Shown here in pieces: positions 31,092-58,059 of a stretch of 64,000 nucleotides of DNA. The notes beneath the pieces were generated by a model that saw only the letters and a list, made by a program, of their open reading frames with translations, made no database searches and was not told the origin of the DNA. Location: positions 2,873,100-2,937,099 of the forward strand of contig OY762428.1 of assembly GCA_963665665.1 (NCBI GenBank). Direction: 5' to 3'. The first letter of the stretch is position 1, and each line of letters opens with the position of its first letter. Source of the DNA: Candidatus Kapaibacterium sp. GTDB lineage: Bacteria; Bacteroidota; Ignavibacteria; Kapaibacteriales; UBA2268. The translations under genes and the position numbers were made by a program.

Positions 31092-31120
31092 TGTGTATGA
31101 TTACAGGTATTTAATGCTTG
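31092..31120 (-). promoter_or_regulatory. phage promoter-like bipartite element, copy A (weakest)
   Basis: Transcribed strand: CAAGCA-N17-TACACA. It shares AATACCTGTAAT with copies B and C and lies about 35 nt upstream of the tape-measure start. Confidence 0.35.
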
Positions 31121-31139
31121 AATTAAATACAATTTATTC

Positions 31140-32432
31140 ATGATTATAATAAGAAAGATGAATAAACCTATACAGCTGTGGGAATATGATGAAATAACTG
31201 ATCCAAATTTACTTGAGATTCTTAAAAAAGAAATAAAAAAGAAAGAGTCTCATTATAAGGATTATTTTACTTTATCTTGGGGAAGCACTTTTAAACCCAA
31301 TGGATACTGTGGATCTTTTGCATTCAATGGAGAAACTTATAGCATCTTACCAAAAATTGAAGGAAAAGGAGATGATGACTGGGATGATGTAAGGAACCTC
31401 TCCTATCTTACTTATATGTTTCTAAAAGCCGAGAATATTGATTTAAAAAATGAAGACATTAGCAATGCTATGAATAGGGAAAGGCTTTCACTCTATGATG
31501 TCTTAATAAAAATATTTACGAACAAATTGCTACCAGAACTGCAAAAAGGTATTCATCGTGAATACGTAAGCAAACGTGATAATGTTAATAAGATCAAAGG
31601 CCGTTGGCTAGTTAGAAAGCATATTACAAAGAATTACTTCAATGAGAAAATATATTGTGAATTTGATGAGTTTTCCGAAAATAACCGGTTGAACAAGTTG
31701 TTTCTTTATGCCGCAAAAGTACTTAAACCACAAAGCCAAGAAACCAGGAAAGACTTGAGAAGAATTGAGTTGGTTCTTGACGAAGTTGAATATGAAGTAA
31801 TAGATGTAAAAAAATTCAATTATTCATTTCATCGAATGAATAAACGCTTTGAGAAATCAGCAAACCTTGCGTTATTATTACTTCGTTATTTACTCCCAAA
31901 CTTTTCTGGTGGGAGTAAGAATAGTTTTATATTCCTATTTAAAATGCACGATGTATTCGAAAGATTCATTGCTAATATTCTTAAGGATTTGGAGCCTGAG
32001 TTGGACGACAGAGAAGTATTAATTCAGCCCCCAAAATATGATAAAGATAACGATTTAAATATTAAACCTGATATGGTAATAAAGAAAGATGATCGGGTAG
32101 AATTAATTATTGATACGAAATATAAGCTTTTTACAGGTAATCCTACACCAGGAGATAAATATCAGATGTATGCTTATGGTATGAGTTATGATTTTCAAAA
32201 TAATAGAAATCGCTCTATTCTTCTTTTGTACCCTGAGAAAGAAGGGAATGAACAAAAAGAAAGAGATTTTCATTTACAAGGAAATGTTGATGAAAGCCAT
32301 GTTGATCTTTATGTCGAGAAGATAAATGTTAAGACTGATAGTAAGATTGTAGGTTTTGATCAATATATTAGTGATATAAAAGATAGATTGAAAGAAATTA
32401 TTGAATCACAAATAAATAGGTATAAAAAATGA
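31140..32432 (+). CDS. mcrC: McrC-like PD-(D/E)xK nuclease subunit of a type IV (McrBC) restriction system
   Basis: 430 aa. The C-terminal nuclease motif IKPDMVIKKDDRVELIIDTKYK fits D..D-x-K. Four-nt overlap (ATGA) with the following McrB-like gene. Confidence 0.75.
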   Translation: MIIIRKMNKPIQLWEYDEITDPNLLEILKKEIKKKESHYKDYFTLSWGSTFKPNGYCGSFAFNGETYSILPKIEGKGDDDWDDVRNLSYLTYMFLKAENIDLKNEDISNAMNRERLSLYDVLIKIFTNKLLPELQKGIHREYVSKRDNVNKIKGRWLVRKHITKNYFNEKIYCEFDEFSENNRLNKLFLYAAKVLKPQSQETRKDLRRIELVLDEVEYEVIDVKKFNYSFHRMNKRFEKSANLALLLLRYLLPNFSGGSKNSFIFLFKMHDVFERFIANILKDLEPELDDREVLIQPPKYDKDNDLNIKPDMVIKKDDRVELIIDTKYKLFTGNPTPGDKYQMYAYGMSYDFQNNRNRSILLLYPEKEGNEQKERDFHLQGNVDESHVDLYVEKINVKTDSKIVGFDQYISDIKDRLKEIIESQINRYKK

Positions 32433-34147
32433 AATTTGAAGAAAAAGTTTTACTGCTTATAAATAGTGGTAATTATAATTATTTGGCTAATAGTGATGAA
32501 TTCTATTTCGAAAAAGCAGTGGAGCAGTTTCGAACATTTATGAAATTTGAAATAGATGATAATGAAATCAATGAATTAATTAATGAATTTAATGAAATAA
32601 AAGGATTCAAAGAATATTTAGATCAACTCGACAATGATTCAATTAAGTATAAACTTTTTAACCTTTTAGGTAAAGTAATTGCTCATATTGATTATCATGC
32701 TGCAAATAAATATGAATTAAACAGTTACAATGACAAGAGGGTTATTGCAAAATCAATGGTGAGACAAACCGACTGGATTAACCATTTACTAAAATATAAA
32801 TTATCAAACAACTTAAATGTTTTTTCAGAATCCACTAAAAATGCAGTTCTTTATTTAATGAACCCAGCTGAGAGAATAACCATTCTATCTGATAATCAAA
32901 GAAAAGCTATTTCAAAATCAATTCTTAAAACAACATATAACTCTGAATCATTTGACCAGGAGATTATCGAGAAAATCGGATTCCCCAAATCAAAAATTAT
33001 CAATAATGATAACATTGGCTATATAACTTCAATAATGCTCTATTCTGATTTGAAAAATTATTGGCAACCTGATGAACACAGTAATAATTTACAACTTAAT
33101 AACGACATAAAAAAAGAAAATCTCTATCCAAAAAATATCATTCTATACGGCCCTCCTGGCACTGGTAAAACTTATCTTCATAAATATTTGATAAATCAAC
33201 TTGAAAATTCTAAATCTGATTCTGATGTTTTCAAAGTAATTGATTCTCTTAAGAGTGTCCCAAAGGGTGAAAACTCTTTTATTGATGAGCTTGAAGATCG
33301 TTACGATTTTGTAAGTTTTCATCAGTCATATTCATATGAGGACTTTGTTGAAGGTTTTAGACCTGTCGCCCCAAAAAAGGTAAATATTAAAGAAAATGAC
33401 AGTGATGAAGGTAATACTTCAAGTTTAAATATAGAATTAAGAAATGGTATTTTCAAAAAAATGGTTGATAAGGCTAAAAATAAAAAAGAGAATTATTATC
33501 TGGTAATTGATGAGATTAACCGCGGTAATATTTCTAAAATCTTTGGCGAATTAATTACCTTAATTGAAGAAGATAAAAGGTTGGGAGCTAAAAATGAATT
33601 AAAAGTGTCATTACCATATTCTTCTGACAAGAACGAAATATTTAAAGATTTTGGAGTACCTAAAAATCTATTTATAATCGGAACTATGAATACAGCCGAT
33701 AAATCTATTGCTCAAATAGATGTTGCTTTAAGACGTAGATTTACTTTTGTCAGGATTGATCCCAGGCCGGATTTAATTGAGCCAAATCCTATTTCTAAAG
33801 AGGGATGGAAAAATTTAGATATTCGAGAAGAATATAAGTCAAATAATGATGATAGGAGCTATAAATGGACTACTGATCCAAAAGACCTACAAGAATGGTT
33901 TATCAACCTCAATATATTTATTGAAAGTAAATTAGGAAAAGACTATCTAATCGGCCATAGTTATTTCATGAAAGTTGACTCTGATCAAGAGTTACAGTTT
34001 GTTCTTAAATACAAAATCATACCTCTCATGGAAGAATATTTCTTTAATGAGGATAAAAATACTATTGAAGATATTGCGAAGTATTGTAGCATAAGATTGA
34101 TAGAGAAAGAATTAACAAATCAAAATGATGATAAGAGTCCTGACTGA
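32429..34147 (+). CDS. mcrB: McrB-like AAA+ GTPase subunit with uncharacterised about 225-aa N-terminal domain
   Basis: Walker A ILYGPPGTGKTY, Walker B LVIDEINRGNISKIFGELITLIE, McrB signature IIGTMNTADKS and ALRRRFTF. Confidence 0.85.
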   Translation: MKFEEKVLLLINSGNYNYLANSDEFYFEKAVEQFRTFMKFEIDDNEINELINEFNEIKGFKEYLDQLDNDSIKYKLFNLLGKVIAHIDYHAANKYELNSYNDKRVIAKSMVRQTDWINHLLKYKLSNNLNVFSESTKNAVLYLMNPAERITILSDNQRKAISKSILKTTYNSESFDQEIIEKIGFPKSKIINNDNIGYITSIMLYSDLKNYWQPDEHSNNLQLNNDIKKENLYPKNIILYGPPGTGKTYLHKYLINQLENSKSDSDVFKVIDSLKSVPKGENSFIDELEDRYDFVSFHQSYSYEDFVEGFRPVAPKKVNIKENDSDEGNTSSLNIELRNGIFKKMVDKAKNKKENYYLVIDEINRGNISKIFGELITLIEEDKRLGAKNELKVSLPYSSDKNEIFKDFGVPKNLFIIGTMNTADKSIAQIDVALRRRFTFVRIDPRPDLIEPNPISKEGWKNLDIREEYKSNNDDRSYKWTTDPKDLQEWFINLNIFIESKLGKDYLIGHSYFMKVDSDQELQFVLKYKIIPLMEEYFFNEDKNTIEDIAKYCSIRLIEKELTNQNDDKSPD

Positions 34148-34231
34148 AGAGATGTTTTATCAAAAATTGAGCAACATCATAATCCAAATGAATCAAGAAA
34201 AAAACTTACTATACTAAATAATCAATTTAAA

Positions 34232-34507
34232 TTGGAATATGGATCCCCAAAAAGGGAATTTCGAAGTAAAAAGTTTGACAATGAAAACGAATTAATAATA
34301 TATTTAGCATACTTTCTCGAAAATGCTTATTGGGAAGAGATTAAAAGTGATAAACAAAATAAGACAAAATTTGAAATAAAACTCTCAAAAAATGAAGTTT
34401 TTGGAACAGGTTATTATGGATCTAAAGTTGATATTAATAAAACGAAAAAAGGTTTCAAAGCTGTATTAAATAGTCTAAAAATAATTGGATTAGACATGAA
34501 AAGGTAA
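34232..34507 (+). CDS. hypothetical protein, in the same frame as mcrB
   Basis: 91-aa ORF with a TTG start. The frame is open back to the mcrB TGA at 34145-34147. No family recognised. Confidence 0.4.
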   Translation: MEYGSPKREFRSKKFDNENELIIYLAYFLENAYWEEIKSDKQNKTKFEIKLSKNEVFGTGYYGSKVDINKTKKGFKAVLNSLKIIGLDMKR

Positions 34508-34523
34508 ATTAAAATAAACAGTT

Positions 34524-34549
34524 AGCAGAGCTTCGGCTCTGCTTTTTTA
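34524..34549 (+). terminator. rho-independent terminator closing the McrCB island
   Basis: AGCAGAGC-ttcg-GCTCTGCT followed by T6. Confidence 0.75.
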
Positions 34550-34879
34550 TTTACTAATCATCTGCTCAATACTATTCATCCCCTCCAAAAACAAACTCTG
34601 CCTAACTTCATTGTGTTTAGTAACATCCCCCTTAGCCAGAGCAGTAAGATACCAAATACCGATTCTCGCCCGGCTGAGACGGTGATAAAGTTCTCCGGGA
34701 TTGAAGCAGTTCTCTATTTTTTCCTGCTCCTCGATCAGCCTTCTTTGTCTAAGCTCCCTTGTACTGTCTTCTGAAAAATCGGCAACAACATTTCTATCCC
34801 GTTCTTCTTTCTTTCGCCTTGCAAGATCGCTGATACGAGAGGTTTCTTCCCGATACCGGTAAAAAAATCCGATACGCAC
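34547..34879 (-). CDS. -1 frame extension of the tail assembly chaperone (GT-like)
   Basis: Overlaps the 3' 145 nt of 34735..35208 in the -1 frame, with a slippery run at 34861-34867. The predicted fusion is about 220 aa. Confidence 0.65.
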   Translation of the reverse strand: MRIGFFYRYREETSRISDLARRKKEERDRNVVADFSEDSTRELRQRRLIEEQEKIENCFNPGELYHRLSRARIGIWYLTALAKGDVTKHNEVRQSLFLEGMNSIEQMISK

Positions 34880-35208
34880 TCCTTCAGGTTATTCAGGTGC
34901 TTAATAGGAAGTGATTTTATGAATTGTTCGGTTTCTATTTCTGCTTTGTCCTTGTTGAAAGGCTGTTTGGCATTATCTTTCATTTCTCTAAGCAGGTAAC
35001 GGGCAACAATAGTCAGCCATTCCGCCCCTCCGGATTTTACAATCTGCCTGAAAGATTCCGCTCCGGCCTGCAACTGATTATACTTGAATTCCCCGGCTTC
35101 CCGGGCAAGTTCCGCCTGCTCAATAGTCAATTGGTAGAAGTCATATTTATATTTCTTTCCTTCATACTCAAATGTTTTTGCCTCGATCGGCTTGTGTTCT
35201 TCATTCAT
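34735..35208 (-). CDS. tail assembly chaperone (G-like, zero-frame product)
   Basis: 157 aa. It overlaps a -1 frame ORF and, in phage gene order, sits upstream of the tape-measure gene. Confidence 0.7.
   Translation of the reverse strand: MNEEHKPIEAKTFEYEGKKYKYDFYQLTIEQAELAREAGEFKYNQLQAGAESFRQIVKSGGAEWLTIVARYLLREMKDNAKQPFNKDKAEIETEQFIKSLPIKHLNNLKECVSDFFTGIGKKPLVSAILQGERKKNGIEMLLPIFQKTVQGSLDKEG
34861..34867 (-). promoter_or_regulatory. -1 programmed frameshift slippery heptamer T_TTT_TTT
   Basis: The zero frame reads GAT TTT TTT ACC and the -1 frame reads GGA TTT TTT TAC. Both frames were verified by hand against the two ORF translations. Confidence 0.65.
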
Positions 35209-35711
35209 TAAAACAGTACTCCTAACAGTGCTTTAGTAAAATAGTTAGTTCTGATTATCAGCCTCGGGCGGTATTCAATGCTCTCGATCTCAAGATTCAG
35301 AACCGGGTTCCTCAGTTCTATCCACATTCCCTTGTTCTTACTTGTATTGATGTATCCAGATGACGGTGGATTAATGCTCGAATCGCCAAGCATGAGAATG
35401 AAATGATAATATTTAACTCCCGGCGACCAGATGTTGTTCAATTCCTGTATTATGTCAGGCTCTCCATCCGGAACATTAATAAGAAGATTATGGGCAATAT
35501 ATACAGTTACTGTGATTATGTATCCCAGAGTCCTGTTGTTCCTGTAATGATCCTGTCTCGTGACCGGAACAATGCTATATGAACTTTCGGCCTCAATATT
35601 ATGTATATATATTATATCCTCGATTCCGTCGCCATGCTTACAAATCCGGACACCGTTTATCGGTATCAGATTGATTTTTCCGGCAATATCTCTGAAATTT
35701 ATCGTCGCCAT
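35208..35711 (-). CDS. phage tail structural protein (tube-like position), hypothetical
   Basis: 167 aa, immediately upstream of the chaperone pair. Call rests on position only. Confidence 0.4.
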   Translation of the reverse strand: MATINFRDIAGKINLIPINGVRICKHGDGIEDIIYIHNIEAESSYSIVPVTRQDHYRNNRTLGYIITVTVYIAHNLLINVPDGEPDIIQELNNIWSPGVKYYHFILMLGDSSINPPSSGYINTSKNKGMWIELRNPVLNLEIESIEYRPRLIIRTNYFTKALLGVLF

Positions 35712-35713
35712 AA

Positions 35714-36124
35714 TTATACCGGCTCCGCATAGCTGAATAAAAATGATATTTCCCTTAGTTCCTTGATCTCTTCGATATAGCTGAGAGGAAACCGCCCGGA
35801 TTCAGTCATAACCTGCACATAATCGCCCCAAGTGTCACTTTTATTTAATGCTATATACTTGAAGCCGGCTGACCAGAAATCCTGCAAGAATGCCAGTATA
35901 TCGGTATCTATTTCATCTGCAGATATGATCACTTCAACCTCTTTATGCTGATACAGTAGATGATTGAACTTTCTGCCATTAAGAAGGATTCCCTGTTCTT
36001 CGGAAGTATTGACAATTGGATCAGCACATTTCACTGTCTCGAATACATTCTGATTTGCTCCCTCTTCATCAAAAGTAAGACTGCTTAATTTGGTATCGCT
36101 ATATTTTAAAGCTATCTCTATCAT
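35714..36124 (-). CDS. phage structural protein, hypothetical
   Basis: 136 aa. Tightly packed within the tail operon, with a 4-nt overlap with the upstream gene. Confidence 0.4.
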   Translation of the reverse strand: MIEIALKYSDTKLSSLTFDEEGANQNVFETVKCADPIVNTSEEQGILLNGRKFNHLLYQHKEVEVIISADEIDTDILAFLQDFWSAGFKYIALNKSDTWGDYVQVMTESGRFPLSYIEEIKELREISFLFSYAEPV

Positions 36125-38556: not shown

Positions 38557-38579
38557 TAACTGGCAATCTAAATGTTCAG

Positions 38580-38617
38580 TATGTATTTTTACAGGTATTG
38601 AGTGTCAATAGGAAATG
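38580..38617 (-). promoter_or_regulatory. phage promoter-like bipartite element, copy B
   Basis: Transcribed strand: CATTTCCTA TTGACA CTCAATACCTGTAAAAA TACATA. Confidence 0.55.
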
Positions 38618-38741
38618 AAAGAATCAATGAAATGGGGATACAAAATGATGGCATTTCTATCCTTTTACCAGATAATAGTATCATAAAGTTAGTAATCTCG
38701 ATGATATATAGTGCAAAATACTACTATTATGGTTTAACCAT

Positions 38742-39641
38742 TTATTGACGTTCTGGAGGTAAAATTATATCTCCTTCATCATAAGATGCTATTGACAAAA
38801 CATCTTGAATATAAGATTGAAATGGAGGTGGATATAGCTGTGTGGAAGTTAAATGTTCATATAAAGATAGCATTAATAAAATTAATGCATGGGCATCACA
38901 ATCTTCTTTATTGAACTTGAAAGAGACTAAACCAGACTTAGGGTCTTTTTTTTCGTAAGATTTAATGGCTATCGGACCTAAATTTATGCCGTTTTTGATA
39001 AATTCCAATTTTGATCTAACAATAATTTTTCCATCTAAACAGCAAATAATATTAGGAATTAATTCTTTGTTTACATTTGTAAATTCGCTTTTTAAAGAAC
39101 CTTTATCCATATCATTCGAATCGCCAATAATCACAAAATGAAATAAATCATTCTGTCTTTCACCTTTTCTATTTATTGATAAATTATCTCCAAGACTAAC
39201 TCCATTTCCAACATATGATAAGGGAACTGATTCTCTTGCCATACCGTTCATAACTTGATTAATTGCATTAACAAAGTTTTCTAAATACTTTTTGGATTTA
39301 TAATAAGTTGATTTGATCTCACCAATAGCATATACAGATTCATATGGAAAATATTCAGTCCCATTTTCACTATCATAAAGAATCTGAGTTGTCGTAGAAT
39401 CGGCAATAATTATATCAAATTGAGGGCTAACGGATAAATTCTTATCCACTATGTGGCCATGCCCAATGTAGAATTTTTGGGGCAATCTTTTTTTCAAAAA
39501 CTTTCTAATAGGTATTTCAAGTTCATCTCCACTAGCATCGATGTCACCAGTATTATGAATGATTTTTGATGAATTTCTTGCTGATTTTATTCTCTCCACT
39601 TCTTGTTTGTAGATATTTTCTATTGGAAATTTTTTCATCAT
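38742..39641 (-). CDS. DUF6602-like PD-(D/E)xK-fold protein (cargo gene)
   Basis: GDELEIPIRKFLKKRLPQKFYIGHGHIVDKNLSVSPQFDIIIADS..FPYESVYAIGEIKSTY matches my recollection of the DUF6602 pattern (S-Q-DIIIyD ... IEVK). AT-rich, flanked by 185- and 135-bp spacers. Confidence 0.55.
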   Translation of the reverse strand: MMKKFPIENIYKQEVERIKSARNSSKIIHNTGDIDASGDELEIPIRKFLKKRLPQKFYIGHGHIVDKNLSVSPQFDIIIADSTTTQILYDSENGTEYFPYESVYAIGEIKSTYYKSKKYLENFVNAINQVMNGMARESVPLSYVGNGVSLGDNLSINRKGERQNDLFHFVIIGDSNDMDKGSLKSEFTNVNKELIPNIICCLDGKIIVRSKLEFIKNGINLGPIAIKSYEKKDPKSGLVSFKFNKEDCDAHALILLMLSLYEHLTSTQLYPPPFQSYIQDVLSIASYDEGDIILPPERQ

Positions 39642-43832: not shown

Positions 43833-43904
43833 AGTTTACAGTTGACAATTGATAGTGGACAGTTTTTCTTTAACTATCAACTATCCACTGTAAACTATCA
43901 ACTA
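43833..43904. repeat. heptad-word inverted repeat (AGTTGAN / TCAACTN), site 1
   Basis: The left arm agtttacagttgacaattgatagtgg matches the reverse complement of the right arm, agtttacagtggatagttgatagtta, at about 22 of 26 positions. Lies between promoter-like copy C and the fibre start. Confidence 0.7.
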
Positions 43905-43906
43905 CT

Positions 43907-43944
43907 CTTGTATTATTACAGGTATTGAGTGTGGGTAGGGAGTG
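43907..43944 (-). promoter_or_regulatory. phage promoter-like bipartite element, copy C
   Basis: Transcribed strand: CACTCCCTA CCCACA CTCAATACCTGTAATAA TACAAG. Confidence 0.6.
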
Positions 43945-44085
43945 AGGTTTATATTTCTACAAATCCAGTTAATTCTCATGGAAAGCTATGGCTCTTATAA
44001 AAAGAAAAAGCTGAACCTTTTATTGAGATTCCAGTTTTTCTGTGAATACCTTGGCAGATGAGGATTTGAAGAAAAATTAGCATTG

Positions 44086-45447
44086 CTACTTTAAAAATTT
44101 AAATTCTACCCTTCTGTTTTTTGCTTTGCCTTCATCAGTTTTATTATCTGCAATAGGTTTAGATTCTCCATATCCAATAGCAATAAGATTATTTTTGTTA
44201 ATACCTTTTTTGATTAAATAGTTTACAACTGATTGGGCCCTTGATTGTGACAAACGTTTGTTGTAGGAGTCGCTGCCATCACTATCAGTATGACCGGAAA
44301 TTTCTACCTTAACATTTGGATATTCCTTAAGCAATTCAACTAATCTATCGAGTTCGGAATATGATTCGGGCCTCAAATCCGATTTATTATATTCAAAAAA
44401 GATATTGTTTACAGTAATACTCCCATCCCAGGGTTTCTTCATTATAATGTCTTTAGTTATGGTAGTTTCTTTCTTTTGACCTTTCAACATTGCATTATCA
44501 GATATGCTTGAGTATCCCTTCTTTTGAAAATAAAATGCATAATTCGAGCCTATAGGAACTTTGAATTCATAGCTCCCATCAGACGGCGAACTATTTGTAG
44601 TTCCTATTTCAACATTTTTATAATTCTCGCTCATCAGCTCCCACCCTACTTTAACTTCCAAAGGCGATCCGTTCGTCGTTTTTACAGTTCCTTTTACGGT
44701 TGCAAAGACAGGCGTTCCTTCGCCAAAAAGCTTTAGTATTGCAGGCTGCGTCTGGTTTTCATAACTTACGATTATTCTGCCGTCCGTCCTTCCGTCCTTC
44801 ACGGGAGCAAAACCGATATTCAATTCTTTGGTTTCATTCGGAGCCAAAGAAAAAGGAGTAAATTTATCGGTTAAAGAAAACTGCGAACCGGACTCGTTAT
44901 CGATCGAAATTGAAGTAATTTTTATCGGACTTGTACCTATATTTTTTATCGCTTTCGATATAGCCCTGTCCGATTGAGAAAATATCGGGACTTTGCCAAA
45001 ATCGACAATTCCGGAATAAACTTCGATTTTCGCCTCGACGCTCTCGCCCGAGATTTTATAGATCAGCGTATCGGCCTGCGTTACTATAACGACGTCGGCC
45101 GTTTTCATTCCTGAGCTTTGCGGATTAAAGCGAAACTCGATATCCCTGCCAGAATTCGACGGAATAGAAAAGGGGAACACATACGTCAAAAGCCGGAAAT
45201 CATTAGCATGATCTCCGGCAATAGTAATATTATCAATCCTAACAGCAAACTTTCCCGTATTTTGTAAATAACCGGCAAAAACGGAATCCTTTTTTGTATT
45301 ATTCAATACTTGCCCGAAATCAATATCCATTGCCGACGCTTTGGGAACGATAATTGAAAGTCGATTGTCTGATTTGTCCTGGATTTGAGCTAAAGTCTCA
45401 ATATGTAGAGACAACAGCAAAACAATATATAAAATTAAATATTTCAT
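44086..45447 (-). CDS. secreted OmpA-family protein with Ig-like and CarboxypepD_reg-like domains
   Basis: Signal peptide MKYLILYIVLLLSLHIETLAQ. The C-terminal OmpA domain reads EISGHTDSDGSDSYNKRLSQSRAQSVVNYL..GYGESKP..NRRVEFKF. Confidence 0.8.
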   Translation of the reverse strand: MKYLILYIVLLLSLHIETLAQIQDKSDNRLSIIVPKASAMDIDFGQVLNNTKKDSVFAGYLQNTGKFAVRIDNITIAGDHANDFRLLTYVFPFSIPSNSGRDIEFRFNPQSSGMKTADVVIVTQADTLIYKISGESVEAKIEVYSGIVDFGKVPIFSQSDRAISKAIKNIGTSPIKITSISIDNESGSQFSLTDKFTPFSLAPNETKELNIGFAPVKDGRTDGRIIVSYENQTQPAILKLFGEGTPVFATVKGTVKTTNGSPLEVKVGWELMSENYKNVEIGTTNSSPSDGSYEFKVPIGSNYAFYFQKKGYSSISDNAMLKGQKKETTITKDIIMKKPWDGSITVNNIFFEYNKSDLRPESYSELDRLVELLKEYPNVKVEISGHTDSDGSDSYNKRLSQSRAQSVVNYLIKKGINKNNLIAIGYGESKPIADNKTDEGKAKNRRVEFKFLK

Positions 45448-45471
45448 TCTTATATCCTTAATAATTTCAAA

Positions 45472-47553
45472 TTAATCCCGGACGCAGCGAACCGAATTCC
45501 CGCACGCCTTACCACTTTCTCGTCTCCCTATTTTAGATGAGGAAATTCCCCTTTCCCAAGCAAGAGTATCGTCTGATTCTGTGGCTGTCCACCAATAACC
45601 GATACCTCCTTGCCAACCAAAGATATTAAATCTATAACCTCCCGGAACAGCAGAAAAACCGGTTTTATCAAAATTTTTATTTCTCATCAATATTTCTTCA
45701 TCTTCATAACGAAAAGTCCATAAATCCGGTTCCCCCGCCAACTGCGCGCCTTGGTCTGATCCTCGCTCATATTCTTTATCAGCTTCAGACCGGCTCATCC
45801 CAAGACACATTTCAAGTTCTTTCCATTCTTCGTCGGTGGGCACGTGCCAGCCCTCGGGCGCTAAACCGCGAGGGTCGTTCACAGCATACCAATTGTAAAG
45901 CTTACCGTAGATTTCTCCATTAGCAGGATCATTGTTGTAATAGCACCATGCTCCGGTTTTCAGGTTTTCCCATTCTTCGGTGTCCTTCACTTCAGGAATT
46001 GGATCCCCATTGCGGTACCGGTCAACATTCAGATTGCAGCCCATCCATATCTTGCCGCATATCTCCACATCGTTTTCACAACCTGTGTATTCTTCATACA
46101 TCGCCTTTGCTGTTGCTCTTACCCATACTTTATTACTCGGATAATTTGGCACCCGCCACCTGTATGCCAGACCACTTGCGGTGTCAGTAATCTGATTCCA
46201 GTTCTTCCCGTCATCAATAGTGTATTCTAATTTCACATAATCGGCAGGCGATACGCCCTCCCATGTTATTGTTGTATCGCTGCCTGCAACTAATTCTTCG
46301 CCGCCATTAGGAAAGACTATTTTGATATTTTGAGTTATCAGTGATTTCTTTTTTATATCGCCACCGGAAACATAGAAATATTTGCCATAGCATGAGTTGC
46401 TTTCAATTTCAAATCTGGAAAAAGCATATGATGAATCGTCTGGGCTGAATTCTATTCTCAATTCTCTTGTTTCGCCTGGTAACAGTGAAAATGGAGGATT
46501 TGTCCCCCCGTAATCAATTATTGTCATCTTTGGGTTACTGCTAATTATTGATTTAACATTTACAGGCTCAACCTGTGCAGTGATTGAGATTTTTTCAGTA
46601 TATGTCTTTCCCGATTCCTTTATTCCAAATTTAATTGAAGCAGATGGAGAAAACTTCAGCTTAGGCAGTTTGTCGTAAGAGACGGAATAACTGAAATCTG
46701 TCATAAGTCCAATATCCGATATTGATAATTCTGCTTTCCTTTTTGTCGGACATCCTCCGCTTATCCATTCGATTTCGCATGGGTCGCCGCCCTGGGCAAA
46801 CATAAGAATGCTTTTATAAATATCTTCTGCCTGTTTTTCAGTTGTAACGTTATCGAAATACATTCCGCCGGTCTTTTTCGATATCTCCTTAAGCAAGTCA
46901 GGTGTTGGGTTATCGACTGTAACACAATAGACTGTAGCGCTGATATCATTTGCTTTTTCAATTATTTCTTCTTGATTACCACTTGCAAAGCCGTCAGTAA
47001 ACAAAACAACAACCTTTTTATATTTTCCTTGTTCTGCAACCCGCAAAGCCCCGGCGCTCCTATCTATAAAAGCCGCGTCAAAATCTGTCCCGTCGTTGCA
47101 ATTCAGGCTTTGTATGCTGTTTATCAATTCTGCTCTATTATGCGAAAAATCAGAAATGAAAAAATTATCCGATTCGAACCCTGTAATAGCACATTCTGAT
47201 GTTCCAAGTGGTAAAAGTTTTAGCCAGGTAGTTGCAGCTGCTTTCAGAATATCCATCGAACGACCACACATCGAGCCGGATAAATCAACTGTTAAAACTG
47301 CAGATATGGGTTGAGAAGGCTGTGGCGCAGGACAATTAATATTTGTAATTTGTCTTTCAATTCTATCCTCTTTAAGAATCAGCGTATAATTCGACAAATT
47401 GCTCATTACCGTTCCATCATCATCAACTACAAAACATTTGGCTTTCATTTCCGGAAATGTTGAGGCATCGATATCGAATACAGTAATATCTTGTGCCATA
47501 ATTGAGGATGATAGAATAAAAAGCAAGAAAAATTTGACTAATATTTTTCTCAT
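45472..47553 (-). CDS. secreted vWA-domain protein with C-terminal FISUMP domain
   Basis: Signal peptide, then vWA MIDAS VDLSGSM ..VVVLFTDG, and a C-terminal FISUMP-type CGKIWMGCNLNV..GKLYNWYAV..APEGWHVPTDEEW. The ATG at 47553 is preferred; the track start is TTG at 47565. Confidence 0.75.
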   Translation of the reverse strand: MRKILVKFFLLFILSSSIMAQDITVFDIDASTFPEMKAKCFVVDDDGTVMSNLSNYTLILKEDRIERQITNINCPAPQPSQPISAVLTVDLSGSMCGRSMDILKAAATTWLKLLPLGTSECAITGFESDNFFISDFSHNRAELINSIQSLNCNDGTDFDAAFIDRSAGALRVAEQGKYKKVVVLFTDGFASGNQEEIIEKANDISATVYCVTVDNPTPDLLKEISKKTGGMYFDNVTTEKQAEDIYKSILMFAQGGDPCEIEWISGGCPTKRKAELSISDIGLMTDFSYSVSYDKLPKLKFSPSASIKFGIKESGKTYTEKISITAQVEPVNVKSIISSNPKMTIIDYGGTNPPFSLLPGETRELRIEFSPDDSSYAFSRFEIESNSCYGKYFYVSGGDIKKKSLITQNIKIVFPNGGEELVAGSDTTITWEGVSPADYVKLEYTIDDGKNWNQITDTASGLAYRWRVPNYPSNKVWVRATAKAMYEEYTGCENDVEICGKIWMGCNLNVDRYRNGDPIPEVKDTEEWENLKTGAWCYYNNDPANGEIYGKLYNWYAVNDPRGLAPEGWHVPTDEEWKELEMCLGMSRSEADKEYERGSDQGAQLAGEPDLWTFRYEDEEILMRNKNFDKTGFSAVPGGYRFNIFGWQGGIGYWWTATESDDTLAWERGISSSKIGRRESGKACGNSVRCVRD

Positions 47554-47633
47554 GATAATTTCCAATCTTATTTCCCAAAATAATTCAAATTAACATATTT
47601 TTGGGAAAAAAAAAAACGAGATTGTTTTTCAAC

Positions 47634-50050: not shown

Positions 50051-50086
50051 TCAAACTTTCAACTGTCAACTATCAACTGTCAACTA
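50051..50086. repeat. heptad array (NTCAACT)x5, site 2
   Basis: tcaaact ttcaact gtcaact atcaact gtcaact, in the 47-bp spacer between the gp36-like and gp37-like genes. Confidence 0.8.
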
Positions 50087-50502: not shown

Positions 50503-50550
50503 CCTTCACTAAAAGTATTTTCAAATCTCTTTGCTAAGATATTGGGATTT

Positions 50551-50588
50551 GATGTAGTGTCCTATGCATTGAGTGTGGGTAGAGAGTG
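50551..50588 (-). promoter_or_regulatory. phage promoter-like bipartite element, copy D
   Basis: Transcribed strand: CACTCTCTA CCCACA CTCAATGCATAGGACAC TACATC. Confidence 0.6.
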
Positions 50589-50707
50589 AAATTATCAAAA
50601 AATACGTATTTATACGGATAAAAATACCAAGTTCTTGGTATTGATTTTTTGATTAACATTTGTCACTTTGTAGTTATCAGTTTTTTTAATTCTTGAAGGA
50701 ATATAAC

Positions 50708-51511
50708 ATGAGACGATTTTTAGCCTTTATAGTATTTGTTTATTTGTTTTCCCCAATAGACAATATTGCTCAAATAATTGACATCAATTATTCTAATTTA
50801 AAAGGGGTAAATGCCATAACTGATACAGTAAAGAAAGAATCAAAAGATATTGAACTTTTGAGTCGTGGTTTTATGGACATTTTTTCTAATGGCAAAATGC
50901 AAAGTACAGCTCAAATATTAAAAATTAATATTGGAGAAAAAGATGGCTTCTATTTTCCTTTCTTTCTATTATTGGGGGCTTCAGGTGATGGTCTTGGTGA
51001 ACAAGAATTGAATGAAAATACAATAGCAAATTTGTTAAACCCATTAGGTGGTATTATTAATGGATCATTTAATGGCAAGAATAATTTATTGTCCTCAGAA
51101 TCTGGGATAACTTCATTAAATTTAGCATATCAAATTTCAGGAAAGTTAATAAATGCTCAAGATTCACTATCAGGAAACTCCAAATTTTTGGGAGTTGGTT
51201 ATGGTAATATAGGTCTCTTTTTTCAAACAGGAGCTTGGGATCCTGATGATGCTGGAAATATGGGAGTCTTTTGGGTTCAAGTAAAAGCCGCAGGTTCATT
51301 AGCTTTTGATAATGCAGTGATTAAAGAAGTCTTTGGAAACTCAGTAATTGATAGTTATTTTATTGGTTATTCCATAGATTTAGGTATTGAAATTGATAAA
51401 AAAATTAATTTGAAAGCTGGAATTTATCAATATTTAAACAGCCAAGATATAATTCTTATGAAAGATCCTGTTTTTAAATTTTCTTTGGATTACAATCTTG
51501 AAAATGATTGA
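50708..51511 (+). CDS. secreted hypothetical protein (opposite-strand cargo gene)
   Basis: ATG at 50708 follows GAAGGA. Signal peptide MRRFLAFIVFVYLFSPIDNIAQ. AT-rich, Gly/Asn-rich and beta-rich in appearance. Confidence 0.55.
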   Translation: MRRFLAFIVFVYLFSPIDNIAQIIDINYSNLKGVNAITDTVKKESKDIELLSRGFMDIFSNGKMQSTAQILKINIGEKDGFYFPFFLLLGASGDGLGEQELNENTIANLLNPLGGIINGSFNGKNNLLSSESGITSLNLAYQISGKLINAQDSLSGNSKFLGVGYGNIGLFFQTGAWDPDDAGNMGVFWVQVKAAGSLAFDNAVIKEVFGNSVIDSYFIGYSIDLGIEIDKKINLKAGIYQYLNSQDIILMKDPVFKFSLDYNLEND

Positions 51512-51604: not shown

Positions 51605-51662
51605 CAAACTGCTACTCCAGCAAATGCAAATTGAACTCAATATGAAGTACATTATTAGGATT
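51605..51662 (-). pseudogene. degenerate remnant homologous to the 3' end of 47634..47921
   Basis: About 80 percent identity over about 58 nt to 47641-47699, with a 1-nt deletion and an in-frame stop. Confidence 0.6.
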
Positions 51663-51676
51663 TCCAATAATATTTT

Positions 51677-51702
51677 ACGCCCCCTAAAACATTAGAGGGC
51701 GT
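51677..51702. terminator. hairpin between the capsid gene and the opposite-strand cargo gene
   Basis: ACGCCCCCT-aaaacatt-AGAGGGCGT (one mismatch), 6 nt after the capsid stop. The T tracts on both sides are weak. Confidence 0.4.
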
Positions 51703-51708
51703 TTCCAT

Positions 51709-54265: not shown

Positions 54266-54308
54266 TTTCCACCTTTATAGTTTTACCTCTGCAAAGCTAT
54301 TTATGGCG

Positions 54309-54346
54309 GTTGTATTGGGCAATGCACTTAATGTGGGTATGGAGTG
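54309..54346 (-). promoter_or_regulatory. phage promoter-like bipartite element, copy E
   Basis: Transcribed strand: CACTCCATA CCCACA TTAAGTGCATTGCCCAA TACAAC. Confidence 0.6.
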
Positions 54347-54358
54347 AAGGGAAAATAT

Positions 54359-54389
54359 AAAAAACCGGAATCTATTTTTGAGATTCCGG
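54359..54389 (-). terminator. rho-independent terminator downstream of the WG-repeat gene
   Basis: The minus strand reads CCGGAATCT-caaaaat-AGATTCCGG followed by T6. Confidence 0.7.
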
Positions 54390-54546
54390 CCTGTCCTTTT
54401 ATTACTTATTATTAAAATGGATTTGGAGATGGCGGTTTATATATTAATTTTTAAACTATTCTTTATTTAATACCACATTTTTATAAATGTTTTTGACGTT
54501 TTTTATGCTCACCTTTGTTCTAATCATTACAAATTTAGAAGAATTT

Positions 54547-57500
54547 TTACATACAGTTAGGATCTGGCATTTCATCCACATATCCATGAATATCATTTTT
54601 AGAATGAATTTGTATGTAAACGATTGGAATAATAATCCTTCCAGTTTTATCAATAAAGCCGTATTTCCCATCTTTTGCTACTTTTGCCAGTCCTTTATAA
54701 AAATAATCTGCATAGTCATATTCAACAGGTACTAATACTTTGCCGCTTTTATCTATAAAGCCGTATTTCCCATCTTTTGCTACTTTTGCTAGGCCTTCGC
54801 TGAAAGAAGAGACATGATCATATTCAACAGGTACTATTACTTTACCGCTTTTATCTATAAAACCCCACTTATCACCTTTTCTTACTCTTGCAAAACCTTC
54901 ATGGAAAAAAATGCATCCATCATATTCAACAGGTACTATTACTTTTCCGCTTTTATCAATAAAACCGTATTTCCCATCTTTTTCTACTATTGCTAGGCCT
55001 TCGCTGAAAGAAGAGACATAATTATATTCAGGTACTATTACTTTGCCGCTTTTATCTATAAAACCGTATTTCCCATCTTTTTCTACTATTGCTAGGCCTT
55101 CGCTGAAATAAGAGACATAATTATATTCGAAAGGTACTATTACTTTGCCGCTTTTATCTAAAAAGCCGTATTTGCCATCTTTTTCTACTCGTGCAAGACC
55201 TTCGTTAAAAGAATCGACATAATCATATACAAGGGGTATTACTAGTTTACCCCTTTTGTCTATAAACCCATATTTCCCATCTTTAGAAACTTTCGAAAGC
55301 CCATCGCTGAAACCATAGAAAAACTCATTATCATAATCAAGCGACATAATTTCCTTACCGCCTTTATTTATAATAAATCTTTTCCCATCTTTCATAACTT
55401 TAGCGTAGTCATCTTCATAGAAATGAAATTTTTTATCATATATTAATGGAATTACTACTTTACCGTTTTTATCAACCGATCCCCATTTTCCTTTTTTTTG
55501 AATTTGAATTAAATCACCATCTCTGAAACAAGAGACTTTATTATATTTCAATGGAATGACAAATTTTCCTTTCTTATTAATAAAGCCTAAACTACTTCCG
55601 ACTTCCACTTCTGCAAGACCGTCGCGGAAAAAATCAATCCAATCATATTCGAAAGGTATTACGACTTTACCACTTTTATCAATAAAGCCATATTTCCCAT
55701 CTTTTTTTACTCCTGCAAGACCTTCTCTGAACCAATTTGCATCTTCATATTCGAAAGGTATTACGACTTTACCACTTTTATCAATAAAGCCATATTTCCC
55801 ATCTTTTTTTACTCCTGCAAGACCTTCTCTGAACCAATTTGCATCTTCATATTCGAAAGGTATTACGACTTTACCACTTTTATCAATAAAGCCAAATTTT
55901 CCATCTATTCTTACACTTGCAAGACCTTCTCTGAACCAATATGCTTCTTCATATTCAAATGGAATAATTTCCTGACCATTATTTTTAATATCAATATAAC
56001 CCCATTTCTCTGATTTTTTTGCTAGAACAATTCCTTCTGAAAGTGAATTGTATTCTATTCTTTCGTATTCAGGTGGAACTATTGTTTTCCCAGTTCTATC
56101 AATAAGTCCTCTACCTCCATTTGTTTTTCCTACTTCAAAATATTCATTATATGATCCAGTAATTGAACGATATTTAAAATCAACAACTACTTCACCTAAG
56201 CTGTCAATTATTCCATCATACCCTTTTGTATCTGTTACATGTGCCAAACCATTATGATAATTAAAGGCATTAATATATATAAATGGAATTACGACTTCTC
56301 CTTTTTTATTAATATATCCATACTTTCCATCCTTTTTGACATATGCTAATCCTTCAGAGAAATTTCCCACTGAAGATTTATCATATATAGGTTTATATTT
56401 AGATTCATAAATATCATATTTAATAGGAATGACGACTTTTCCAGTAGAATCTATATATCCGGTTTTACCGTATTTTTCAACCCTAACCAGCCCTTCGTTG
56501 TAGTTACCAATAAAATCATAGTCTAATGGAAAAACTACAGCTCCCGAGGTATCTATATATTTCCATACTCCTTCTTCTTTAACTCTTGCAATGCCTTCTT
56601 GAAAATCACTCACTTCTTCATACTTAGTGGCAATTACACCTTTCCCTGTTGTGTCTATAAACCCCCACCCATTCAAATAACCGCCTTTTGCATGTTTTAC
56701 TTTAGCAAAACCATTTTTAAAATTATTAATAATTTCATATTCGACAGGTAATACTTCTTCACCTTTGTTATTTATTATCCCATATCGATAACAACGACCT
56801 TGACAACATATACCTTGAACCCTTGCTAATTTTTGATTTAAAAATTCAATGTTAGAGTAATCAAAACTAAATAACTCATCACCGCTTTTATCAATGAAAG
56901 TCTTTTTTCCACCTATTATTACCTGGGCGATCCCATCACTGAAATCTCCAGCTTCGTCATAATCAAAAGGTATTACAACATTGCCACTCTTGTCAATAAA
57001 TCCACACTTTCCATTTTTTCTCACCTTGGCAAGTTCTTCTGAAAAGTTAAAAGGATAGTCATAAGGGATATAAACCCCGAGAGATTCCAAATTAATAACA
57101 ATATTCCCACTTTTATCTATAAAGCCGTATTTCTCATCCTTATTTACTGCTGCAAGACCTTCATGAAAATTCTCAGCCCTGTCATACTCAAACGGAATGA
57201 CTATTTTACCGGTTTTATCTATAAAGCCATATTTATTTCCTTTACGTACTCGTACAAGATTATCTGAAAATTCCCAAACTGCAGCATATTCAGAATAGAA
57301 AATGATTTTTCCGTTTTTGTCAATAAAGCCCCACTTATCATCTTTTTTTACTTTTGCCATTCCATTTTTGAAATCATGAGCTCTTTCAAATTCATAAGGA
57401 ATTACTTCATTGCCGCTCTTGTCAATAAAGCCATACTTCCCATCTTTTTCTATAGCAGCTAAATCTTCTGAAAAATCATTGCTTTTATAAAATTTGAAAG

Positions 57501-57951
57501 ATATTAACAACTTTCCTTTTTTATCTATGTATCCTGACTCTTTATTATTATAAACTCTTGCGAGTCCACAACTAAAATCTCTTGCCTCAGTGTATTTTAT
57601 TGGAATTACTACTTTGCCGCTTCTATCTATAAAGCCGTAATCACGATCTTTTTTCACTAATGCAAGTTCATCGCTGAAAGATCCGGCCTTATCATATTCT
57701 AAGGGAACAACAATTTCTCCATCATTATTAATAAAGCCCCATTTCCCATTACTACTTACTCTCGCAAGCCCTGAATGAAAATCACCCACAAATTCGAATT
57801 CTTCTCTAAAAGTAAGAAAGACATCTCCATCTTTATCAAGAAAATGGAATTGCCCTTTTCCATCATTTGCAATAAAAGCAATATCTTTATTATTATCACA
57901 TGCAGAGATTAGTATTATCATAAAACTTAAAATAATTGAAATTCTGGTCAT
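54547..57951 (-). CDS. WG-repeat (KWG) lipoprotein, 1134 aa
   Basis: Lipobox ILISAC. About 30 units of about 34-35 aa of the form GLA.V.KDGKYGFIDKSGKVVIPFEYD. Confidence 0.85.
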   Translation of the reverse strand: MTRISIILSFMIILISACDNNKDIAFIANDGKGQFHFLDKDGDVFLTFREEFEFVGDFHSGLARVSSNGKWGFINNDGEIVVPLEYDKAGSFSDELALVKKDRDYGFIDRSGKVVIPIKYTEARDFSCGLARVYNNKESGYIDKKGKLLISFKFYKSNDFSEDLAAIEKDGKYGFIDKSGNEVIPYEFERAHDFKNGMAKVKKDDKWGFIDKNGKIIFYSEYAAVWEFSDNLVRVRKGNKYGFIDKTGKIVIPFEYDRAENFHEGLAAVNKDEKYGFIDKSGNIVINLESLGVYIPYDYPFNFSEELAKVRKNGKCGFIDKSGNVVIPFDYDEAGDFSDGIAQVIIGGKKTFIDKSGDELFSFDYSNIEFLNQKLARVQGICCQGRCYRYGIINNKGEEVLPVEYEIINNFKNGFAKVKHAKGGYLNGWGFIDTTGKGVIATKYEEVSDFQEGIARVKEEGVWKYIDTSGAVVFPLDYDFIGNYNEGLVRVEKYGKTGYIDSTGKVVIPIKYDIYESKYKPIYDKSSVGNFSEGLAYVKKDGKYGYINKKGEVVIPFIYINAFNYHNGLAHVTDTKGYDGIIDSLGEVVVDFKYRSITGSYNEYFEVGKTNGGRGLIDRTGKTIVPPEYERIEYNSLSEGIVLAKKSEKWGYIDIKNNGQEIIPFEYEEAYWFREGLASVRIDGKFGFIDKSGKVVIPFEYEDANWFREGLAGVKKDGKYGFIDKSGKVVIPFEYEDANWFREGLAGVKKDGKYGFIDKSGKVVIPFEYDWIDFFRDGLAEVEVGSSLGFINKKGKFVIPLKYNKVSCFRDGDLIQIQKKGKWGSVDKNGKVVIPLIYDKKFHFYEDDYAKVMKDGKRFIINKGGKEIMSLDYDNEFFYGFSDGLSKVSKDGKYGFIDKRGKLVIPLVYDYVDSFNEGLARVEKDGKYGFLDKSGKVIVPFEYNYVSYFSEGLAIVEKDGKYGFIDKSGKVIVPEYNYVSSFSEGLAIVEKDGKYGFIDKSGKVIVPVEYDGCIFFHEGFARVRKGDKWGFIDKSGKVIVPVEYDHVSSFSEGLAKVAKDGKYGFIDKSGKVLVPVEYDYADYFYKGLAKVAKDGKYGFIDKTGRIIIPIVYIQIHSKNDIHGYVDEMPDPNCM
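55643..55892 (-). repeat. perfect 102-bp tandem repeat (2.4 copies) inside the WG-repeat gene
   Basis: 55643-55744 equals 55745-55846, and the third copy is identical to about 55892. Encodes GKYGFIDKSGKVVIPFEYEDANWFREGLAGVKKD twice. Confidence 0.9.
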
Positions 57952-58021
57952 GATTACCTCAAGGATATTTTCAAAAGTTTTTATTTTCCCTTAATTTACT
58001 AAATATTTGTTAACTCTCAAA

Positions 58022-58059
58022 CACCCAATCCCCACACTGAGTGCATTTCATAATACCCG
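58022..58059 (+). promoter_or_regulatory. phage promoter-like bipartite element, copy F (plus-strand arm)
   Basis: CACCCAATC CCCACA CTGAGTGCATTTCATAA TACCCG, about 90 nt upstream of 58147. Confidence 0.55.

Follow-up and report, generated by a model that had tools for sequence, protein, structure and literature searches.

Six predicted activator-dependent late promoters, with tandem palindromes and a Bacteroidota-type -7 box, in a cargo-bearing prophage of Candidatus Kapaibacterium

Our analysis suggests, with a probability that we put at about 0.68, that six copies (A to F) of an intergenic element in the window, by which we mean the whole stretch of 64,000 nucleotides that was analysed, are activator-dependent late promoters of a prophage, in which a core box of the host type would be combined with palindromic sites for a Mor/C-family protein, and which would restart late transcription after cargo genes. 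All six sequences are present on the strands and at the positions given in a preliminary description of this DNA, as a direct check confirmed. The pattern CCCACA-N17-TAC has four exact matches in the window (copies C, D, E and F) against 0.20 expected, and none of 100 shuffles gave four; a longer pattern, CACYCNNTNCCCACAYTNARTRC, matches the same four copies only (0.07 expected), and YTNAATACCTGTAANNATAC matches A, B and C (three matches against 0.04 expected), with A and B lacking CCCACA. A repeat finder, run unprompted, placed A to E in a single family (D5). All six copies are intergenic, in a prophage part of the window with a non-coding share of about 6%, all six face the next late gene, and none of the window's cargo genes has a copy in front of it. 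The earlier proposals that the element marks the late transcription units of the phage and is missing before cargo genes are both borne out.

The signal is not carried by two hexamer-like boxes alone, since the bipartite pattern of the preliminary description with one mismatch allowed (8 matches against 5.8 expected) adds only background. The element extends beyond the 38 bp first described, and a T(A/T)nnTT box lies downstream in every copy. The conserved unit, shared by the window and a comparison set of about 30 related phages of Ignavibacteria/Kapabacteria, is an 11-bp palindrome, RYAYTNARTRC, with GTAYTSARTRC as its best form. These units recur every 13 bp (spacings of 13 bp in 21 cases and of 25 bp in eight), forming arrays of three to seven units in the relatives; the core is palindromic, and both of its orientations are found within one array. 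A T(A/T)nnTT(TG) box lies exactly 24 nt past the promoter-proximal palindrome (ending in ARTRC) in six of six window copies; the search for core-N24-TAnnTT returns five matches against 0.72 expected, all of them copies A to E, while F has TTnnTT. The boxes of A to D are partial (TAnnTT) and weaker than those of E and F (Table 1). An extra palindrome at 35271-35281, inside a 167-aa gene, lacks a box at the 24-nt distance and probably arose by chance. We also considered and rejected a reading as an RNA element: the Rfam search of the window found tRNA-Phe alone, and the palindromes occur in both orientations and lie upstream of the predicted start.

The core-N24-box layout is common to 15 distinct orthologous promoters of the relatives, in all of which the box reads T(A/T)nnTTTG. 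The alignment of the relatives was chosen with a pattern fixing ARTRC and T[AT]nnTT, and conservation at those positions is therefore partly built in; beyond the pattern, TTT at -35 to -33 and TGC at -6 to -4 are conserved as well. The latter completes a TAnnTTTGC sequence. A profile made solely from the relatives recovers F in the window (E-value 2.9e-5), with E, C and B as the next-best window matches at individually non-significant E-values of 0.4-0.8 and with D and A ranking lower.

Table 1. Predicted promoter copies, cargo blocks and terminators in the window
Feature	Coordinates	Strand	Description
Copy A	31075..31130	-	Predicted restart promoter before tape-measure gene; core 31117-31107 GCATTAAATAC; box 31082-31075 TACATTGC; predicted start near 31070
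Copy B	38563..38618	-	Predicted restart promoter before 811-aa tail gene; core 38605-38595 ACACTCAATAC; box 38570-38563 TAGATTGC; predicted start near 38558
Copy C	43890..43945	-	Predicted restart promoter before 529-aa fibre-like gene; core 43932-43922 ACACTCAATAC; box 43897-43890 TAGTTTAC; predicted start near 43885
Copy D	50534..50589	-	Predicted restart promoter before Mu gp36-like gene; core 50576-50566 ACACTCAATGC; box 50541-50534 TATCTTAG; predicted start near 50529
Copy E	54292..54347	-	Predicted ancestral late promoter of the protease/scaffold-decoration-capsid operon; upstream unit 54347-54337 TCACTCCATAC; core 54334-54324 ACATTAAGTGC; -7 box 54299-54292 TAGCTTTG; predicted start near 54287
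Copy F	58021..58076	+	Predicted ancestral late promoter of the methyltransferase-terminase-(portal) arm; upstream unit 58021-58031; core 58034-58044 ACACTGAGTGC; box 58069-58076 TTGTTTTG; predicted start near 58081
Cargo 1	54547..57951	-	1134-aa WG-repeat gene; Pfam WG_beta_rep, 28 repeats
Intrinsic terminator	54362..54392	-	After WG-repeat gene, directly upstream of E; 12-pair stem, then T run
Cargo 2	50693..51511	+	272-aa gene, antisense to late operon; absent in relatives
Hairpin and T run	50641-50619		Precedes copy D; read from sequence
Cargo 3	44086..47565	-	vWA/Fib_succ_major gene (697 aa) and Ig/OmpA gene (453 aa)
Cargo 4	38742..39641	-	DUF6602 gene (299 aa); missing from relatives
Cargo 5	31140..34543	+	McrC-like (430 aa), McrB-like AAA (572 aa) and 91-aa ORF; block antisense to late operon
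Bidirectional terminator	34524-34543		Within cargo 5 block

The relatives have only two such promoters, placed back to back, and copies E and F are orthologous to their rightward and leftward promoters, respectively. There, the two are the ends of one array of about 100 bp in a single divergent intergenic region, and in relatives lacking insertions the motif is confined to this divergent head region. The earlier suggestion that the element ties the two divergent arms together is upheld by this arrangement. A DNA scan of viral contigs with the 15-mer CACTCAATACCTGTA gave 42 matches, one of them from a related phage and the others due to chance, and an exact look-up of the window's capsid protein returned no record.

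Five blocks of the window (the WG-repeat gene, the 272-aa ORF, the vWA and OmpA genes, DUF6602 and McrBC) are missing from collinear relatives, in which the gene junctions are 0-20 bp; being absent there and unrelated to virion functions, they are, on sequence comparison, morons or cargo insertions. The 272-aa protein has no match in Pfam or PHROG, and no recombinase gene was seen among the annotated cargo. One of the five insertions splits the ancestral pair: the WG-repeat gene lies inside the divergent promoter array and parts E from F, in a region that measures about 270 bp in relatives, where this gene is missing. After each of the remaining four comes a new promoter copy. In the slot of copy D, the capsid stop codon of the relatives overlaps the start of the gp36-like gene, with no promoter; in that of cargo 3 and copy C, about 12-20 bp lie between a 95-aa gene and the fibre gene that comes next; in that of copy B, the 240-aa and 811-aa genes are separated by 10-16 bp; and in that of cargo 5, the tape-measure gene follows the 157-aa gene by at most about 250 bp (L075, L078 and L084). 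Three relatives (L079, L077 and L080) likewise carry cargo in late-operon slots with a promoter copy after each. Two of them, L077 and L080, have other cargo and a promoter before the tape-measure gene, where L075 has neither, and L079 keeps promoter C in the same slot, but with an upstream cargo and a downstream leader that both differ from those of the window. L003 has three antisense ORFs in place of its tail genes, with no restart promoter; it is probably a prophage in decay and was counted neither for nor against.

We propose the following mechanism. The core would be a promoter for the primary sigma factor of the host, of the Bacteroidota/Chlorobi type, with a -7 box at about -12 to -5 and a poor -33 element. 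If the box does span -12 to -5, the proximal palindrome, which ends 24 nt before it, is centred near -42, and a second lies 13 bp upstream, near -55 relative to the predicted start; these tandem palindromes would be the activator sites. A small protein of the Mor/C family, encoded by the last gene of the early/replication operon of the phage, would bind them as dimers, perhaps as a dimer of dimers over 24 bp (-60 to -37), and recruit the host RNA polymerase. One array of three to seven units would serve the promoters of both the head/packaging arm and the capsid-to-tape-measure operon in the relatives, whereas in the window D, C, B and A would restart transcription of the structural genes downstream of the cargo that interrupts the operon. 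For copy B, where the ATG lies 6 nt past the box, the mRNA may be leaderless. A bolder and doubtful extension is that activator sites and -7 box form a portable restart module, which would allow cargo, for example defence genes, to be accommodated at any point of a long structural operon. The promoter copies would then mark out stable sites for cargo, and related phages would exchange what these sites contain through recombination between backbone flank and promoter; the site that separates the 95-aa gene from the fibre gene, compared between L079 and the window, would be an example of such a swap.

The preliminary description had left the choice between an alternative or phage-encoded sigma factor and an activator site. 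The second option is favoured by our analysis; the first is not. Relatives encode a Mor/C-type protein (L072, L064 and L108, the last being the prophage of L003). The 99-aa protein of L072 matches PHROG 836 ("late transcriptional activator") at 3e-9 and falls just below the Pfam Mor cut-off (23.5 bits against 24.9), and all 18 aligned homologues match Pfam Mor (best 7e-8). One homologue, the last gene of the early operon on a contig of the relative L003, is named Mor by NCBI. A profile search of solved structures with the Mor-like protein gave no significant match and did not find Mor. A fold search, made with a model of mean pLDDT 68, was likewise non-significant and ranked Mor (1rr7) third at an E-value of 1.3, so that Mor and C figure among non-significant matches only. 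A scan of viral contigs with this protein found its own contig only, because such a scan needs near-exact peptides. The window's own prophage runs past base 64000, and from relatives with 77-85% capsid identity we infer that it too has a Mor/C gene, which our model would place at the end of an early operon converging on the portal/Mu F/Mu G-like arm. Among the sample of ORFs that were annotated in the relatives, we noticed no gene for a sigma factor.

Tandem palindromic sites also look like operator arrays, and the protein bound to them could instead be a prophage or host repressor that silences the structural genes in the lysogen, the promoter itself being constitutive. A weaker third unit, which overlaps the -33 region and the spacer of the predicted promoter, would suit such a repressor. 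However, the best of the sites, at about -42 and -55, are found upstream of the -33 region and not over the box or start, and the poor -33 element is what is expected of activator-dependent promoters. In addition, the early and immunity regions of the relatives are free of motif copies, as suits a late-specific element, and the Mor/C-type gene is placed where Mu-like phages keep their late activator. Taken together, these observations make repression unlikely, and we prefer activation by the Mor/C-family protein.

The T(A/T)nnTT(TG) box agrees with TAnnTTTG, the -7 box recognised by the main sigma factor in the Bacteroidota/Chlorobi group, which is in keeping with the Ignavibacteria/Kapabacteria hosts of these phages. 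In Chlorobi, a sister group, the RpoD motif that has been mapped, TTG-N17-23-TAnnTTTG, resembles that of Bacteroidetes (bioRxiv 10.1101/172254), and the Flavobacterium box extends from -12 to -5 (PMC9723704). Copies A and B read TAnnTTGC, which corresponds to the TAnnTTGY variant reported for Flavobacterium psychrophilum (PMC9723704). The phage elements thus share with primary-sigma promoters of these groups the conserved 8-mer T(A/T)nnTTTG followed by a short leader, but differ in that most of them lack the -33 TTG or carry it out of place: a T-rich run (the TTT at -35 to -33) is kept in the relatives, and a clear TTG is found in some copies only, such as E (ATTG) and the TTTTTGG type in L005. 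Within the window, 7 of 46 TAnnTTTG matches are intergenic against an intergenic fraction of 8.6%, a mild enrichment, and some host promoters resemble ordinary TTGACA/TATAAT types, so that the sigma specificity of the host is drawn from neighbouring phyla. A sigma-54 reading of the conserved TTGC was rejected, as no GG element could be seen by eye at the required distance.

The preliminary description had preferred a bipartite promoter, with CCCACA as -35 and TACA as -10 separated by 17 nt, used by a phage-encoded or alternative sigma factor and starting 7-10 nt past TAC. The exact 17-nt spacing in all six window copies, the reading TTGACA-N17-TACATA in copy B and a T-R-C, half-site-like, that is moderately conserved near -26 (the supposed -10) in the relatives too speak for it, and this last position has some role that our model does not explain. 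Yet CCCACA has no fixed position in the orthologous promoters: it is absent at the promoter-proximal position in all relatives and stands between distal units in L005, L007, L010 and L016. Its six nucleotides span the boundary of two palindromic units, taking one base from the end of the first, then the CC that spaces them, then three bases from the start of the second, in a 13-bp repeat that is also seen in the opposite orientation. The window hexamers at the supposed -10 (TACACA, TACATA, TACAAG, TACATC, TACAAC and TACCCG) have no T at position 6, and those of the relatives (TGCAAA, TGCAGA, GGTTGT and AACTCA) lack the pairing of an A at position 2 with a T at position 6. A sigma-70 consensus scan calls none of the six copies, no sigma-factor gene was noticed among the annotated ORFs of the relatives, and the TAnnTTTG box, about 12 nt further downstream, is far better conserved, which moves the predicted start to about 25 nt past TAC, whereas the bipartite reading would put each start about 20 nt upstream of ours. 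We consider the bipartite promoter very improbable.

Least probable of all is that the element is a recombination or insertion site bordering cargo cassettes, with its promoter-like features secondary, for although every window-specific insertion adjoins a copy, one lies inside the ancestral array and L079 retains promoter C between different neighbours, four of the five insertions have a copy on one side only, facing the next late gene at a fixed box distance, cargo-free relatives keep the element before both late arms, and the annotated cargo has no visible recombinase gene.

If our preferred reading of activator-dependent late promoters is right, it provides the first concrete model of late transcription in temperate phages of Ignavibacteria/Kapabacteria, consisting of a Mor/C-type activator, arrays of palindromes spaced by 13 bp and a Bacteroidota-type -7 box; a literature search found no paper joining Ignavibacteria, prophage and Mu-like. 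It would also indicate how a phage tolerates several antisense or terminated cargo blocks, McrBC included, within its structural operon, namely by a new late-promoter copy after each. Were this general, cargo slots in phage genomes from metagenomes could be spotted by their promoter copies, which could also help to tell backbone genes from cargo in annotation, and the portable module, if real, would amount to a general rule for the placement of cargo islands in phages that depend on an activator and not on an antiterminator.

In our assessment, the system would belong with the known Mu-type late promoters as a variant that differs in host, -7 box and array form. Mu late promoters have a -10 and lack a -35, with the C-protein dyad centred at -43.5 (PMC2582627), and Mor and C bind as tetramers to two neighbouring sites, A and B, which together take up about 26 bp (bioRxiv 10.1101/2025.05.02.651988). 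[quoted passage not shown] The activator would likewise be a small protein with a C-terminal helix–turn–helix, produced as the preceding phase of transcription ends. The head genes are also Mu-like: the window encodes a gp36-like protein, and just past the terminase gene the relatives have genes for a Mu-type portal, for Mu F and for a virion-morphogenesis protein (Pfam Phage_tail_S) that we read as G-like. Unlike Mu, however, these phages have Ignavibacteria/Kapabacteria hosts and a TAnnTTTG core box, and carry 11-bp palindromes in 13-bp tandem arrays of three to seven units for two divergent promoters, where each Mu promoter has a single 16-bp dyad. The annotated parts of the relatives show just one Mor/C gene, which suggests a two-step and not a three-step cascade. 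Their annotated early region has a primase-helicase, with no transposase seen in the annotated part, and the window's prophage ends beside a tRNA-Phe gene.

Other temperate phages have late activators as well, among them P2 Ogr, P4 Delta and those of the ArpU type, and Ogr sites read TGT-N12-ACA near -55. RinA is described as another (PMC3152322). All share with our model a dedicated activator that switches on structural operons, but Ogr and RinA sites are unlike the phage elements here in both sequence and protein family. Finally, morons with their own promoter and terminator are comparable as foreign genes that sit as autonomous units inside late regions. In lambdoid phages, late-operon morons are read through by Q antitermination, whereas here a fresh, predicted activator-dependent promoter follows each interruption.

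The six copies (A-F) are most likely Mu-type late promoters that depend on an activator and have a Bacteroidota-type core box, a reading drawn from sequence comparison. All six sequences of the preliminary description are present at the positions in the table, each intergenic (6/6) and each facing the next gene (6/6), in a prophage part of the window that is ~6% non-coding. The exact pattern CCCACA-N17-TAC holds for C, D, E and F (4 matches, 0.2 expected) and leaves out A and B, and a longer pattern of box plus hexamer likewise matches C, D, E and F only (0.07 expected). A 20-nt pattern common to A, B and C has 3 matches against 0.04 expected, a repeat finder placed A-E, unprompted, in one family (D5), and an RNA-family scan matched sites A-F to no known RNA family.

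Pfam and PHROG scans identified, among the minus-strand late genes of the window, a head maturation protease/scaffold, a decoration protein and an E-type capsid protein; further structural genes encode Mu gp36-like, fibre-like and tape-measure proteins, and the plus strand carries methyltransferases, PAPS-reductase-like and ParB-like proteins, and the small and large terminase subunits. Relatives of the capsid (76-85% identity) occur in Ignavibacteria and Kapabacteria genome bins, two of the bins being labelled as other taxa, and in viral contigs. Directly beyond the terminase gene, where the window stops and up to which the prophage is known here, the relatives have genes for a Mu-type portal, for Mu F and for a virion-morphogenesis protein that belongs to Pfam Phage_tail_S and is taken here as Mu G-like. 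At the other side, ~170 bp separate the tRNA-Phe gene from the tape-measure gene end, which places the end of the prophage, and probably its attachment site, here. A TAACTTTG box stands 31 nt upstream of the tRNA-Phe gene.

Aligned on the transcribed strand, the copies show an element longer than the 38 bp first assigned to it. In 6/6 copies, the core, a promoter-proximal 11-bp palindrome (RYAYTNARTRC), is separated at its ...ARTRC end by exactly 24 nt from a downstream T(A/T)nnTT box; core-N24-TAnnTT has 5 matches in the window against 0.72 expected, all five being A-E, and the box of F is TTGTTTTG. In the relatives, only ~270 bp separate the scaffold gene from the divergent methyltransferase gene, and this region contains an array of 11-bp palindromes (e.g. 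GCACTCAATAC, GTACTCAGTGC, GTATTGAGTGC) spaced by 13 bp in 21 cases and by 25 bp in 8. On each side, a box comes 24 nt past the outermost good palindrome: TAAGTTTG, TAGTTTTG or TATGTTTG rightward and TTGTTTTG leftward. In the more distant relatives L013/L014, a block of CAACAGTG-type repeats makes the divergent region twice as large; GCAGACAATAAATAA..TTTTTTG stands as a direct duplicate on either side of the block, and the rightward promoter has the palindrome at a different spacing to the TA-box.

A sigma-factor parse, with CCCACA as -35 and TAC as -10, is less consistent with these comparative data. What had been taken for a separate upstream CAC(T/C)C box forms, with TAC, a degenerate upstream palindrome (TCACTCCCTAC); the hexamer runs from the last C of that upstream unit across a CC spacer into the core, of which it takes the first three bases, and the downstream "TAC" closes a third unit, half-site-like and placed 12 nt past the core. 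Among the relatives, CCCACA is found between distal units (L005, L007, L010, L016) and not beside the promoter, and the supposed -10 position reads TGCAAA, TGCAGA, GGTTGT or AACTCA.

The conserved 8-mer matches in sequence the -7 box of the Bacteroidota primary sigma factor. Start-site mapping in Chlorobaculum, which belongs to the sister group of Ignavibacteria, yielded an RpoD motif resembling that of Bacteroidetes, TTG-N17-23-TAnnTTTG, and the Chlorobaculum RpoD clusters with Bacteroidetes RpoDs (bioRxiv 10.1101/172254). In Flavobacterium psychrophilum, where the box lies at -12 to -5, TAnnTTGY occurs as a variant (PMC9723704); copies A and B have TAnnTTGC. Placing the box at -12 to -5, on which the predicted coordinates rest, would put the core palindrome at -47 to -37 (centre -42) and the centre of the next unit at about -55. 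In the promoters selected from the relatives, TTT at -35 to -33 and TGC at -6 to -4 are conserved, though not fixed by the selection pattern. The -33 element is mostly poor. The window's host DNA gives weak backing for the Bacteroidota-type box: TAnnTTTG is depleted in the window (46 matches, 73 expected; 7/46 intergenic), and some host promoters resemble ordinary TTGACA/TATAAT types. Past copy B, the 811-aa tail gene has its ATG just 6 nt from the predicted -7 box, and this gene would have either a leaderless mRNA or a true start codon further downstream.

When all window proteins were compared by tblastn with about 30 related loci, the relatives showed a compact operon with gene junctions of 0-20 bp: scaffold, decoration, capsid, gp36-like, 133 aa, 96 aa, 114 aa, 201 aa, 148 aa and 95 aa, then fibre, 544 aa, 240 aa, 811 aa, 136 aa, 167 aa, 157 aa and tape measure. 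Relatives with this operon have the promoter element in the divergent head region only. The window has five blocks beyond it, and the additional copies would restart late transcription past each such cargo insertion. Terminators or hairpins with T runs lie upstream of E and D, and the McrBC block ends in a bidirectional terminator. The related locus L079 (95% fibre identity) shares promoter C in an identical slot, with two different opposite-strand ORFs upstream and a differing leader downstream. In L077 and L080, the slot ahead of tape measure holds HTH/M78-peptidase and PIN-domain cargo, past which come three good palindromes and, 24 nt further on, TTATTTTG; L075 has neither cargo nor promoter there. 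An extra SLT lysozyme gene in L001, co-oriented and tightly packed, comes without a restart promoter. L003, probably a decayed prophage, lacks a restart promoter and has lost its tail genes. Palindromes serving as repressor operators fit the comparative data less well than activator-dependent promoters do, and so does an element serving as a recombination site. New here are mainly the arrays of palindromes at 13-bp spacing, the host group and the pairing, one to one, of cargo insertions with promoter copies.

Coordinates of features in the window and in related loci
Feature	Position	Strand	Remark
12-bp tandem repeat (GGTTCGGATAAG, 5 copies)	8368-8450		close to end of 449-aa ORF
2841-aa ORF	8906-17431		host part
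tRNA-Phe gene	25646-25719
Tape-measure gene end	25890
Copy A	31092-31120	-
McrBC, 91-aa ORF, terminator	31140-34543		then copy A
End of predicted -7 box of copy B to start of 811-aa tail gene	38563-38556	-
Copy B	38580-38617	-
DUF6602 gene	38742-39641		then copy B
AGTTGAY units	43833-43903
Copy C	43907-43944	-
vWA/Fib_succ and OmpA genes	44086-47565		then copy C
AGTTGAY units	50054-50085
Copy D	50551-50588	-
272-aa antisense gene	50693-51511		then copy D
Copy E	54309-54346	-
WG-repeat gene	54547-57951		within ancestral array, separating E from F
Copy F	58022-58059	+
AGTTGAY units	59997-60083
Junction	59998-60156		AGTTGAY array absent from relatives
L013 divergent region	8075-8619
L064 hotspot cargo	6076-9593		ABC-3C system (SMEK, MC6, DUF2326)
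L108 (prophage of L003) hotspot cargo	10492-18794		ABC transporter, asparagine synthase, sigma-54 activator
L071 hotspot cargo	6456-10847		unrelated large ORFs
L063 hotspot cargo	5450-8608		unrelated large ORFs

A second repeat family consists of tandem 7-bp AGTTGAY units (18-mer: 16 matches, 0.24 expected). Two of its sites are inverted double arrays folding as long hairpins, one in the leader past copy C (-29 kcal/mol, z -5.1) and the other with z -2.6. These arrays could be bound by the ParB-like protein or be elements of the REP/MITE kind.

A candidate activator is a 99-aa protein of the related locus L072, whose gene directly follows the Mu G-like gene and runs on the other strand. The protein matches Pfam Mor at 5.8e-5, slightly below cut-off; its match to PHROG 836, "late transcriptional activator", is at 3e-9. 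Of its 48 close homologues, 18 were aligned, and 18/18 match Pfam Mor (best 7e-8). Neither sequence nor fold comparison with the solved structures of Mor and C gave a significant match, and membership of the Mor family therefore rests on the profile matches. A homologue on the contig of L003, named "Mor protein" by NCBI, is encoded by the last gene of an operon with a primase-helicase; this operon and the Mu G/F end of the head arm face each other across a cargo island. L064 also has a Mor-like homologue. The palindrome element was not found in the early regions of relatives carrying the Mor-like gene. The gap between the Mor-like and Mu G-like genes is a variable cargo hotspot in the relatives. 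Mu late promoters have a -10 without a -35, and a 16-bp C-protein dyad centred at -43.5 (PMC2582627); the predicted geometry of our copies is alike, with a box, a mostly poor -33 and a dyad near -42. Mor and C bind as tetramers to adjacent A and B sites, covering ~26 bp (bioRxiv 10.1101/2025.05.02.651988), compared with the 24 bp spanned here by two adjacent 11-bp units.
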